12,537 bases of DNA, taken from UHGV virus genome UHGV-0172325; one strand, given 5' to 3'. The notes beneath the pieces are model-generated. The model did no database searches and was not told where the DNA came from. It saw only the letters and a list, made by a program, of their open reading frames with translations. Positions 2,960 to 5,568 of this stretch are shown piece after piece. A program made the position numbers and the translations under genes. The first letter of the stretch is position 1. Each line of letters opens with the position of its first letter. The stretch comes from a virus.

Positions 2960-3863
2960 CGTTTTGTTCTCCTGCGTCTCCTTTGATGCGAATGCCAGCA
3001 AGCCAGTTTCTTATGCCGATATATTCAGCGTTCCTGAAACCGCTTTTTACATATATAAATGGCAAGCGAAGATTGTGACCATTGGCTGCCAGGTAGTCTT
3101 TACAACCCTGTTCGGTGAAACAGCAGGTAACGAATTCATCAATATCTTTCACAGCAACGCGCCGCCATTTTTCTGGTGGCTCTCGAAAGTTTTCGTGAAG
3201 TAGTTCGAGACGACGACTTTGGCGTTTATTGGCTTCATTGCCATCTTCATCAACCCAGACAATCCGGTCATAGTCATAATCAGCATCAACAACGATTTCG
3301 CGCTTTTGATACACACAAAACATGGGATCTGACGTTATTCGATTGTCCTGTGTTCGAATATTTTCACCGATGATGCCAAACGAATCTGGTGCAGATTTTG
3401 TCTGCATCTCTTCGATACGTTCAGCCATCGCAGCACACTCTTCAAAGTTGCTTAATGCTTTTCGCTCCCATTCGGCGCATTGTTTTTCCAGTTCTGCTAT
3501 GCGCTTACTTCCATCCGCGATTACTCCCTCGTAATATTCACGCTGTTCGTTGAGTTTTGATTTTGCTGCTTCAAGCTCAACGCGCAGCTTCCCTACCGTT
3601 AGCGCAATATCCTCGTTCTCCTGGTCGCGGAGTTTGATGTATTGCTGGTTCCTTTCCCGTTCATCCAGTAGTGCCAAAGCAACCTTTGGATTAAAGGCAG
3701 CAATAAATTCAGCGTTGTTTTTCAGAACGTGTTGCGCAATGGCCTGACTACTTAGTCGGACCTCATAACCACGTGCGCCACGGTGTGGTTTATATGAGTC
3801 CCAGTCTCCCCACGTTGCTTTCTCTGCCGCCTCACGCAGTGCCTGATAGTCAATCTTGCTCAC
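2946..3863 (-). CDS. Ea22-like coiled-coil prophage protein (about 305 aa from a GTG start)
   Basis: Long ORF with a central coiled-coil ([36 protein letters not shown]...). Start set at the in-frame GTG at 3863, preceded by AAGGAGG with a 6-nt spacer and in GTGA overlap with the upstream stop. The track start at 3884 is also GTG but has no SD. Confidence 0.55.
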
Positions 3864-4037: not shown

Positions 4038-4331
4038 TCAGTCATTACTGATAGCGCCATAGCGTGAGCGGTAATTACGCAGGCGCGGGTCAATTTCATG
4101 GAAGTGGGTATATGTGGCTTTGCGGAATGGTCGGATTGATGTCTGGTAAATTCGCTCGCGTTCTTCTTTCTCTGCAAGCCATATACAATTGCGAAATTCC
4201 TTTTCCTCTTTCGTTTCCTGTGGTAGCGACATTATCCGGTCGTAGTTTTTCCTGAATTTATCCAGCACCTCCGATACGGAATTGCCGGAACAGCGGCGCG
4301 CGTCGTCCGCACCATACAGAGGCGCTGGCAT
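4038..4331 (-). CDS. Hypothetical protein (97 aa)
   Basis: ORF with a strong SD (AGGAG, 7-nt spacer), starting 13 nt after the ssb stop. Confidence 0.5.
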
Positions 4332-4344
4332 GATTTTCTCCTGA

Positions 4345-4860
4345 TTAAATTGCGTGAATAGCGTGACGAGGGAAGGGGAGAGTTACTGGTGCAAAGGGTA
4401 TATCGTCGTCAAAATCCATAGGTGGTTCGCTGTGATTCCCATGCTGCTTAGATTGCTGTCTTTGTTGCTGACCGTTATTTCGCTGAGGTGAAGACTGTTC
4501 ATTGCCTCCTTGCTTTCCACCAAGCATTTGCATGGTTCCACCAACGCCTACGATAACTTCGGTAGTGAACCGATCCTGTCCGCTTTGATCCTGCCATTTT
4601 CTTGTCCGCAATTTGCCTTCAAGATAAACCTCTGAGCCTTTTCGCAGATATTCGCTGGCAATTTCTGCCAGTTTCCCGCTCATTACCACACGGTGCCACT
4701 CCGTCTGCTCCTTTTGCTCTCCAGTTTGCTTATCACGCCATTGTTCTGACGTAGCAACTGTAAGGTTTGCAAATGCCGTTCCTGATGGTGAATATCTGAT
4801 TTCTGGATCATGACCAAGGCGACCAATAATGATCACCTTATTTACGCCTCTGCTTGCCAT
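4345..4860 (-). CDS. ssb: Single-stranded DNA-binding protein (SSB) with a 15-aa extension beyond the canonical DDDIPF tip
   Basis: N-terminal OB-fold region closely matches E. coli SSB (MASRGVNKV..., [45 protein letters not shown]), followed by a Gly/Gln-rich linker and [11 protein letters not shown]. The ORF then continues [15 protein letters not shown] before the stop. Confidence 0.9.
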
Positions 4861-5568
4861 TTATGCCGCCTGTTTTAGCTCGTTAACTCTGATGTTCATT
4901 ACCTGAACGCATTTAGCCTGCGCCTCCTCGTTTCCAGCCATTAATTGCCAGTCACGCTGATAACGCTCGATGAGTTTTTTCTTGTCAGTTTCTGTTGACG
5001 CATAATCGCTGAAGTCTTTCAGGATTTGTTCGCAGTCAACCGATGGAGATTTCTGGTTGGTATTTTCTGGTGGTGATTTGTTATCTGATACTGGCATTGC
5101 CCAGCCCGGCAGCGATGGGGGGGACCAGTAAAATCCTGTTCCATCCTTCAGTTTTGCCCTGTGCCACCCCTGCTTTTTATCGAGAGATGTTTGTGCGAAA
5201 CCTTCCTCAAGGTTATACAGATACCGACCGATTCCCCACTGAACGGCAGCGCGCTTCATTGCACCGGAACGACCGCCTTTGACGGCTTCTACCTGCGTGT
5301 TTTCAGCAGCATCCCATTTGGTTACCCATTCGGAATCAATCTTTATTGATATGCCGCATTCAACGCCGCCGTTGTTGGGAATATCGCGGTATTCATTGCG
5401 CCATCCTGCTTTGCCGCAAACATCGTCCAGGCGTTTCATGATTGCCCGGTTCGTGACATAAGCCAGCACCATAGCCCACACTTTTCCATCGCGTGTTTTA
5501 CCGCTTTGCTGTATTCGCCATTCGATATCTTCAGGGCTGAATGGCTCATCGAATTTGTTCAAATCCAT
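4861..5568 (-). CDS. Rad52/22-family ssDNA-annealing protein (phage recombinase, Sak-like)
   Basis: 235-aa ORF directly upstream of ssb (its stop TAA abuts the ssb ATG). The N-terminal region with KRAAVQWGIGRYLY resembles Rad52-type annealing proteins. Sits where bet/erf occurs in lambdoid phages. Confidence 0.55.
   Translation of the reverse strand: MDLNKFDEPFSPEDIEWRIQQSGKTRDGKVWAMVLAYVTNRAIMKRLDDVCGKAGWRNEYRDIPNNGGVECGISIKIDSEWVTKWDAAENTQVEAVKGGRSGAMKRAAVQWGIGRYLYNLEEGFAQTSLDKKQGWHRAKLKDGTGFYWSPPSLPGWAMPVSDNKSPPENTNQKSPSVDCEQILKDFSDYASTETDKKKLIERYQRDWQLMAGNEEAQAKCVQVMNIRVNELKQAA

Follow-up and report, generated by a model that had tools for sequence, protein, structure and literature searches.

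The DNA analysed here, 12,537 nucleotides of the virus genome UHGV-0172325 (hereafter the window), corresponds by its profile matches to the early region of a lambdoid prophage. Along it lie, in this order, Ead/Ea22, abc2, ssb, the gene for a Rad52-like annealing protein and, to the right of these, genes for an S24 repressor of the cI type, Cro, CII, replication protein O and a DnaB-type helicase. The ssb ORF (4345..4860, minus strand; 171 codons plus stop) encodes a bacterial-type SSB of the lambdoid recombination module (PF00436) and is flanked by two genes on the same strand. The stop codon of the gene for the Rad52/Sak-type annealing protein (4861..5568, minus strand; PF04098, phrog_1097), also called Erf-like, abuts the ssb start in the sequence TAAATG. 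The abc2 gene (4038..4331, minus strand; PF11043, E = 4e-62), coding for anti-RecBCD protein 2, follows 13 nt after the ssb stop and is preceded by an AGGAG ribosome-binding site at 4338-4342. A position of ssb in the early-left operon, between the annealing-protein gene and abc2, is characteristic of lambdoid SSB-1 modules, and the order is the same in phages Sf6, HK75 and ECP1. SSB-1 of Sf6 and ES18 belongs to the same gene family and occupies the same slot, Sf6 gp27 being 97% identical to the window SSB over the body of the protein. According to a 2025 survey of lambdoid recombination modules, the Sf6 and ES18 SSBs that define SSB-1 have not been studied experimentally (Genome Res 2025, PMC12315714).

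The encoded protein comprises an OB-fold ssDNA-binding domain (residues 6-105; 4546..4845, minus strand; Pfam SSB match, E = 2.1e-38), a disordered linker rich in Gln, Gly and Asn (approximately residues 113-145; 4426..4524, minus strand; AF2 pLDDT ~30), an acidic tip ending in DDDIPF (residues 146-156; 4393..4425, minus strand) and 15 further residues (157-171; 4348..4392, minus strand) leading to the stop codon TAA (4345..4347, minus strand). These last 15 residues, which contain PVTLPFPRH and end in ...PRHAIHAI, will be referred to as the tail or cap. The protein scores 183.8 bits against TIGR00621 (cut-off 53.95), as expected of a bacterial-type SSB, and shares with E. coli-type SSB the OB fold, the Gln/Gly-rich linker and the exact sequence of the tip. 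In E. coli-type SSB, however, the tip is terminal, whereas in the window SSB it is followed by 15 conserved residues, so that the tip phenylalanine lacks the free α-carboxylate at the extreme C-terminus. The tip corresponds to the C-terminus of the E. coli SSB chains in the PDB: a PDB sequence search aligned it with the last 13 residues of SSB chains, with the alignment ending at the tip, and among the matches no solved chain carries the tail, the tip alone being matched. NCBIfam SSB profiles likewise stop at residue 156 of 171, which leaves the last 15 residues outside every curated SSB model. An AF2 monomer of the window SSB, built with 55 homologues, has a mean pLDDT of 53 and a tail of low confidence (~35-45) that does not dock.

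An earlier note on this DNA had described 15 residues past the DDDIPF tip, with no stop right after the TTT codon and with no simple frameshift that would restore one there. The sequence bears this out. The TTT codon of Phe156 lies at 4393-4395 on the minus strand and is followed by GCA-CCA and the remainder of 15 sense codons; a one-base shift gives ...CAC CAG TAA (LHQ-stop) instead of a canonical end. The extension had been placed at 4345-4389, which is otherwise right but leaves out its first codon, GCA (4390-4392).

The extension is not peculiar to this prophage. The same tail is present, letter for letter, in phages HK75, ECP1, CP-1639, epsilon34 and mEpX2, the SSB bodies of which are down to ~70-85% identical. 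The ssb/abc2 junction (window 4320-4440) is found with 100% identity in at least 10 complete E. coli chromosomes and was matched in 411 of 5426 complete E. coli genomes, 191 of them contiguously. PGAP annotates the identical gene as ssb, and RefSeq lists its product as that of an intact gene, not a pseudogene (WP_000168264.1). Among the best 120 homologues drawn from a search of 5.8 billion proteins, ~115 carry the tail; they are 74-97% identical, come from E. coli, Klebsiella, Citrobacter, Enterobacter and Salmonella, and have a nearly invariant PVTLPFPRH within the consensus [AS]PVTLPFPRH[AT][IV][HY][AV][IL]. A single cluster among them comprises 1030 sequences. PVTLPFPRH, searched as a degenerate DNA pattern, was matched at no fewer than 120 loci in viral contigs and also in genomes of Escherichia, Enterobacter, Kluyvera, Pseudescherichia, Buttiauxella and Citrobacter; about six matches in genome contigs of unrelated taxa and two viral ones (L093 and L122) were discarded as chance matches. 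Tip and tail are moreover found on a second SSB lineage (MAINVITVSGNVGKDAV...), the OB fold of which is only 25-28% identical. Recurrence in hundreds of independent records means that the extension in the window is not a chance feature.

These data bear directly on the notion that the unusual C-terminus reflects an assembly or sequencing error, or a recent stop-loss in this one prophage. The C-terminus itself is the only thing that speaks for it; the same 45 nt recur in many independently sequenced phages and genomes, the tail has diversified with synonymous variation, and the rare tail-less relatives differ by a clean 45-nt indel and not by read-through into intergenic DNA. We therefore assign this explanation a probability close to nil. 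The suggestion of the earlier note that the extension is encoded and not a trivial error is thus upheld by its identity in independently sequenced phages and by the intact RefSeq entry. Its alternative suggestion of a recent stop-loss is contradicted, as the tail is old, diversified, under purifying selection and delimited as a discrete 45-nt in-frame cassette. The extension is conserved in prophage SSBs, and homologues do not uniformly end at DDDIPF.

The mode of conservation was assessed on 12 tail haplotypes from loci selected by their SSB body, without regard to the tail. Variation in the tail occupies 23 of 37 possible synonymous states versus 17 of 98 non-synonymous states (odds ratio 7.8, p = 1e-6). 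Some haplotypes carry eight synonymous and no non-synonymous changes, and at loci of the second lineage (OB fold 25-28% identical) the tail DNA differs at 2-8 synonymous positions. Judged by these counts, it is the peptide that is conserved and not the DNA, as expected under purifying selection at the peptide level. Nucleotide-level explanations, such as a regulatory element or a boundary sequence, were rejected because the variation in the tail is synonymous.

A second source of information on the tail is the junction between tip and cap (4392..4393, minus strand), which in relatives is the exact insertion point of an Sf6 gp26-type HNH gene. Sf6 SSB ends in ...NFDDSDIPF followed by TAG, the gene for the 159-aa HNH endonuclease gp26 lies directly next to it, and the last 14 residues of gp26 are encoded by the same DNA as the window tail. 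The Sf6 and ES18 SSB-1 genes are thus HNH-invaded alleles ending in ...DIPF, while the window holds the uninvaded, capped allele: it reads TTT-GCA-CCA across the junction without an insert, which makes it an empty site and not an HNH-occupied one. Among the 120 matches listed for viral tail loci, which are redundant and give rough frequencies only, 92 join the tail to an SSB and 24 to an HNH protein. The latter genes comprise three diverged variants, each preceded by an SSB that stops right after the phenylalanine. Of 77 SSB loci ascertained on the body, 44 have the cap; 20 lack it and have a gp26-type HNH gene, three lack it and have an ES18-type HNH gene, and ~9 have neither cap nor HNH gene. 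HNH insertion at exactly this junction can thus part the cap from SSB.

In an alignment of the Sf6 and window ssb genes, 7 of 431 columns differ, whereas the final 40 columns up to the insertion point contain 10 differences (p = 8e-8). The altered flank fits the pattern expected of a target site changed for self-immunity, and the insertion may represent putative homing. The nearest HNH homologue (53% identical), from Vibrio phage D60, is again found immediately 3' to an ssb gene. Precise insertion at highly conserved coding sequences is likewise a trait of free-standing HNH homing endonuclease genes, but these have a stop codon of their own, whereas the Sf6-type HNH ORF reads into the tail codons of the host gene. 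At two further loci (L202 and L210), exactly the 45 tail nt are absent, the downstream intergenic DNA is the same and an ATTT microhomology is found at the junction, which looks like a deletion that regenerated the IPF-stop end. Since capped alleles, alleles uncapped by HNH insertion and alleles uncapped by deletion are all found, three states coexist in nature.

The sharing of DNA between cap and HNH gene raises the question of which of the two the tail belongs to. One could regard it as a functionless scar: what remained, after a deletion, of the 3' end of an HNH gene or of a mosaic boundary, fused in frame to ssb. The same 14 residues do end the HNH ORF in Sf6-type phages, the tip/tail junction is a recurrent breakpoint (as at L086 and L114), and propagation of Sf6 and ES18 proceeds with SSBs that lack the cap. 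HNH homologues outside the module and the PHROG HNH profile end before the tail, however, so that it is not native to the HNH gene: homologues in Vibrio, Klebsiella and Staphylococcus phages align over approximately residues 1-143 only and end ~10 residues past the HNH motif, and the profile stops at residue 143 of 159. On SSBs, furthermore, tails show much greater diversity and a much wider distribution than on HNH proteins; they are under strong purifying selection and also occur on primase-helicases and plasmid SSBs without an HNH history. A neutral scar is, on this evidence, highly improbable.

By its pattern, the window tail belongs to a broad family of add-ons, 9-16 residues long, that follow the tip, and it represents the enterobacterial lambdoid form of that family. 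The family pattern, AP[IV][GT]L.[YF]...[RK]..[IL][HY].[ILF], can be divided into a proximal half, AP[IV][GT]L.[YF], and a distal half, [RK]..[IL][HY].[ILF]-COOH; add-ons of the main AP[IV][GT]L group are 14-16 residues long. The window tail agrees with AP[IV][GT]L-x-[YF]-x-[RK]-x-x-[IL]-[HY]-x-[ILF]-COOH at every defined position. More generally, the add-ons take the form x-x-x-G/T-L-x-[YF]-x-[RK]-x-x-[IL]-[HY]-x-[ILF]-COOH following (D/E)DDIPF. A search of viral contigs with an IPF-APIGL pattern returned at least 120 matches, and 115 of the 120 listed end in ...D[FW]DDDIPF plus 14-15 residues, with tails such as APIGLPYPRHAIYVI, APIGLMYPRHLINVI, APIGLPFPSHSIYAL, APIGLQYPALLMCM and APIGLQEGRMFLHMI. 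The bodies bearing these tails are unrelated and include PF00436 SSBs, DUF669/phrog_743 SSBs, and phrog_2544 and phrog_4477 proteins. The motif also ends phi92 gp156, ORF199 of the rV5-like phage JES2013, a Proteus phage SSB and the DNA primase/helicase of Klebsiella phage K54_rec2 (...DDDTPFAPIGLQYAKHAIYVI), and the SSBs of plasmid Rts1 (...DDIPFAGLGASFGKHTIHAIC) and an IncF plasmid bear related 16-residue add-ons. In every case the position is strictly C-terminal. Attached as it is to unrelated DNA-binding scaffolds, the tail is modular.

Residues after the tip are not restricted to this family. Of 120 viral FDDDIPF sites sampled arbitrarily, the phenylalanine is the last residue at 83, and ~34 (~28%) have short extensions belonging to several families. 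Among 150 SSB representatives of 50% identity clusters, a PF end is seen in 77, and 15 continue past a tip-like IPF; only a few of these 15 resemble the tail family of the window.

We looked for a gene that accompanies the tail. ORF clustering over 116 loci returned no universal neighbour besides SSB itself, and the tail family adjoins annealing proteins of three families, Rad52-like, Erf and Sak4. An Abc2-family gene is present at all 114 PVTLPFPRH loci with enough downstream DNA among the matches listed; Abc2 was nonetheless rejected as a defining association, as the linkage breaks in close variants of the tail. The proposal of the earlier note that the extension supports annealing with the adjacent recombinase finds little to sustain it, given three annealing families, primase-helicases and plasmid SSBs that carry the tail and the lack of a universal neighbour in the clustering. 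In its general form, this proposal makes the tail a handle for the adjacent phage recombination proteins, be it the Erf/Rad52-like protein or Abc2. Apart from the linkage to Abc2, it draws on the observation that the upstream annealing proteins share a P22-Erf-type C-terminal segment (...ELKQAA) despite different N-terminal domains, and on a precedent in phage HK620, where the last six residues of the SSB (HkaK), NDYPPF, are needed for Sak4 loading (PMC5928155). The HK620 SSB resembles the capped SSB in occupying the same module slot and in having an extreme C-terminus with a specific interaction motif. It differs in being a distant SSB homologue, classed as a non-homologue in the 2025 survey (PMC12315714), and in ending at a tip-like PF with no add-on after it. 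Closely related tails are, moreover, found with Sak4 and without Abc2 (L189, L194, L216 and L220), members of the wider family are also present in lytic phages and plasmids that have none of these genes, and P22, with the same Erf C-terminus and Abc2, has no SSB at all. A recombinase handle is thus decidedly unlikely, and the lack of a constant neighbour makes a host-encoded partner or a self-interaction likelier than the adjacent recombinase.

The C-terminal tip of SSB is the textbook hub that recruits more than a dozen genome-maintenance proteins, and it is also under pursuit as an antibiotic target. To our knowledge, the carboxylate of the terminal phenylalanine is central to every solved complex. 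Host partner pockets would accordingly bury the terminal phenylalanine and anchor its free α-carboxylate, as RecO does through Arg132, which anchors the carboxyl end of SSB-Ct and the substitution of which (R132A) leads to loss of binding (PMC3152348). Because the pockets anchor the terminal carboxylate, 15 extra residues should block docking. We slightly favour a reading of the tail as a true short linear motif at the C-terminus, maintained by selection, which caps the tip of SSB, weakens canonical docking and re-routes the protein to another partner. The cap would weaken or abolish the docking of ExoI, RecO, χ, PriA, RecQ and others, and would offer a new hydrophobic C-terminal motif in place of the tip; the SSB of the element itself would in this way be directed to a different partner, probably host-encoded, since no phage neighbour is constant. 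On the sequence comparisons above, the cap probably changes which partners SSB recruits. As Sf6 and ES18 propagate with uncapped SSBs, it is also predicted to be probably dispensable for plaque growth in the laboratory.

Some observations sit less easily with such capping. The tip is strongly conserved under the cap, which would be odd if capping simply inactivated it. In addition, the AF2 tail is of low confidence and undocked, and the 116 loci share no conserved partner gene.

An arrangement of related kind is known from T7, in which the C-terminal tails of gp2.5 and gp4 are acidic, end in Phe and share a binding partner. A capped SSB re-routed to another partner would, we infer, be analogous to these shared tails. 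The likeness lies in the presence of the motif both on SSB-like proteins of the phi92/rV5 type and on the K54_rec2 primase/helicase, albeit in separate phages. The T7 tails end at the aromatic residue, whereas the capped proteins have 14-16 residues more. A tail shared with the helicase, as in T7, is not seen in the window, the DnaB-type helicase of which ends in ...RRYAQGADV and lacks the motif.

The conservation of the tip beneath the cap could also be understood if the tail were a pro-peptide, cleaved after Phe156 in vivo so that the canonical tip is released at the right time. The tip is indeed perfectly conserved under the cap, and most tail families start with Ala-Pro directly after the phenylalanine. 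Yet no candidate protease is known or linked, conservation extends over the length and the entire sequence of the tail, further than a cleavage site calls for, and HNH insertion yields an uncapped SSB directly with no sign of a compensating change. Taken together, we consider proteolytic release very unlikely.

The two halves of the add-on each recall a known peptide motif. The hexamer PVTLPF/PIGLPY/PIGLQY in the proximal half could be a sliding-clamp-binding motif that tethers the host β clamp to the SSB or the primase-helicase. The canonical clamp motif reads Q-φ-x-[LM]-x-[FL], with a glutamine that is important but not essential (PMC11139829). Positions 2-6 of the hexamer fit this motif; in P-V-T-L-P-F of the window, V2, L4 and F6 agree with positions 2, 4 and 6. 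The disordered C-terminal location recalls that in Pol II and Pol IV, and the hexamer is common to SSB and primase-helicase. Position 1, by contrast, is proline and never glutamine, both in the window type and in 115 of 115 tails of the APIGL scan, the pattern of which itself required proline, and position 6 is in many relatives Tyr or His, outside the known set. Plasmid variants (AGLGASFG.., IGHGYGV..) fit poorly, and the conserved distal half of the tail is left without an explanation. As an explanation of the tail, clamp binding is improbable.

The distal half, in turn, might be a degron or remodelling tag: a basic-then-hydrophobic C-terminus read by a cytoplasmic AAA+ machine such as ClpX, which would limit the level of the SSB of the element or strip it from ssDNA. 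This explanation accommodates the strictly C-terminal position of the tail and the fact that the distal [RK]xx[IL][HY]x[ILF]-COOH is its most widely conserved part. It also draws on a loose likeness to the ClpX C-motif-2 degron of MuA, which ends in ...NRRKKAI-COOH (PMC12723719). That likeness is weak, however, and carries no statistical score: in this unscored comparison, window ...PRHAIHAI and MuA ...RRKKAI-COOH both end in AI, but the window has one Arg and two His only. Nor does a degron explain the proximal AP[IV][GT]L.[YF] half, which is equally conserved within phages. We regard a degron or remodelling tag as unlikely. The clamp-like hexamer and the ClpX-like end may nevertheless, if weakly, be put forward as two concrete candidates for the docking of a partner.

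Combined with partner re-routing by the cap, the spread of the motif allows for a broader and more tentative proposal, which we consider possible without favouring it. Mobile elements, namely temperate and lytic phages and conjugative plasmids, might have added a second interaction code to the universal SSB-Ct tip, one that would block the host interactome and dock a single hub. Host nucleases and helicases, and perhaps also defence sensors able to recognise the tip, would thereby be kept off the ssDNA of the element. The hub could be the β clamp, an AAA+ remodeller or a replisome component, approached through the same peptide on SSBs and primase-helicases, and HNH endonucleases would exploit the code by targeting the DNA that encodes the motif.

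A description of residues beyond the SSB tip was not found in the searchable literature, nor was one of the cap in the main text of the 2025 survey (PMC12315714); a paper on the Enc34 SSB has no bearing on the cap. The sole trace is a note in the GenBank entry of Sf6, stating that gp26 shares 14 contiguous residues with 'E. coli SSB'. The protein itself is already in the databases as plain ssb; what the alignments add is that its extended tip is a variant on the SSB-Ct interaction motif, real and widespread.

Nature provides matched pairs for this variant, with capped SSBs in HK75, ECP1 and the present prophage and uncapped ones in Sf6, ES18 and the 45-nt deletion alleles. The cap is relevant to recombineering, in which it is of importance that annealing protein and SSB form a cognate pair, and to those defence systems for which phage SSBs are the trigger. 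If the carboxylate is indeed deliberately buried in a large natural class of SSBs, the tip code would have a second layer, and phages and plasmids may use it to separate their own ssDNA from the host interactome or to recruit a different hub.

The boundary between the SSB phenylalanine codon, which ends the acidic DDDIPF tip, and the codons for the 15-residue tail (window 4392/4393) is the exact site occupied elsewhere by HNH endonuclease genes of the Sf6 gp26 type. Such genes are found at the junction in Sf6 itself (L002, 1825-2304) and, among others, in the comparison loci L012, L028-L030 and L036, and their open reading frames run on into the tail codons. Three HNH variants occur, and two of them have the endonuclease frame in phase with ssb, only a single TAG codon intervening (DIPF*ELNMKICS...).

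Exactly the 45 tail nucleotides are absent from the 3' end of the SSB gene in the viral contigs L202 and L210, with ATTT microhomology at the junction (CCATTT/TAAGGAC); these contigs represent natural uncapped deletion alleles. Truncated remnants, in which just ...IPF/SF and the 15-residue tail are left, were observed in L086 (about 3440-3506) and L114 (about 1300-1371). In both loci, unrelated DNA begins no more than a few bases away from the tip/tail junction, and the junction is a recurrent breakpoint. The viral FDDDIPF sample (L348-L456) also contained further families in which a short extension follows the tip but does not resemble that of the window, namely a 9-residue APLHHLAGA type, xNPYRGxxxLxI and MRHGHRGADVCWRAM.

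Upstream of ssb, the stop codon of the erf-like gene abuts the ssb start codon as TAAATG (window 4858-4863), both reading frames being in the same phase. Such an arrangement suggests that the two genes are translationally coupled. A similar C-terminal end (...IR..ELKQAA) is common to annealing proteins with different N-terminal domains, either Rad52-like (PF04098) or ERF (PF04404), and is present in the window (4861-5568) and in the ORFs upstream of ssb in L138, L019, L016 and L133. This common end corresponds to the swap of Erf domains already noted in epsilon34, and is possibly a shared partner-binding domain. Downstream, an ORF of 94-101 codons begins 9-19 nt past the ssb stop in L137, L138, L144, L016 and L019. 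The encoded proteins (MSAPLTVAGYLRPPKKSGTKAEVL...RGKFGHTRSD) can be aligned with the anti-RecBCD protein Abc2, yet remain under the Pfam threshold; they seem to form a divergent family of Abc2-like proteins encoded 3' of the second SSB lineage.

Further minus-strand ORFs of the window include one of 316 residues (1449-2399) in which a dATP/dGTP pyrophosphohydrolase domain (residues 151-246) is followed by DUF551 (253-311), the domain search returning no match for its N-terminal 150 residues. Two overlapping ORFs of 216 and 135 residues (7336-7986 and 7974-8381) separate the recombination region from the repressor, and neither has a Pfam match; in the former, a run of hydrophobic residues occurs near the C-terminal third.

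A second HNH gene, encoding 155 residues (MSHLDGIIKRF...) and different from the gp26 type, is inserted precisely between the stop codon of erf and the start codon of ssb in L035, L047, L078, L082 and L048. The erf/ssb interval is a second endonuclease insertion site of the same recombination module. In Vibrio phage D60 (L226, 560-700), the ssb tip is broken up (...DFDDD-RS-TAG-DIPF-TAA) and a gp26-type HNH gene (53% identical) lies directly 3' of it; the interrupted tip may reflect a homing site that has been altered, or else an arrangement for read-through. Finally, unrelated endonuclease genes, HNH and 'endonuclease VII', are situated directly 3' of, or overlap, the tip-and-tail coding ends of a primase/helicase and ORF199 in Klebsiella phage K54_rec2 (L458, 2581-3147) and JES2013 (L461, 1562-2185), which suggests that the DNA encoding the tip-and-tail motif is a general homing target.
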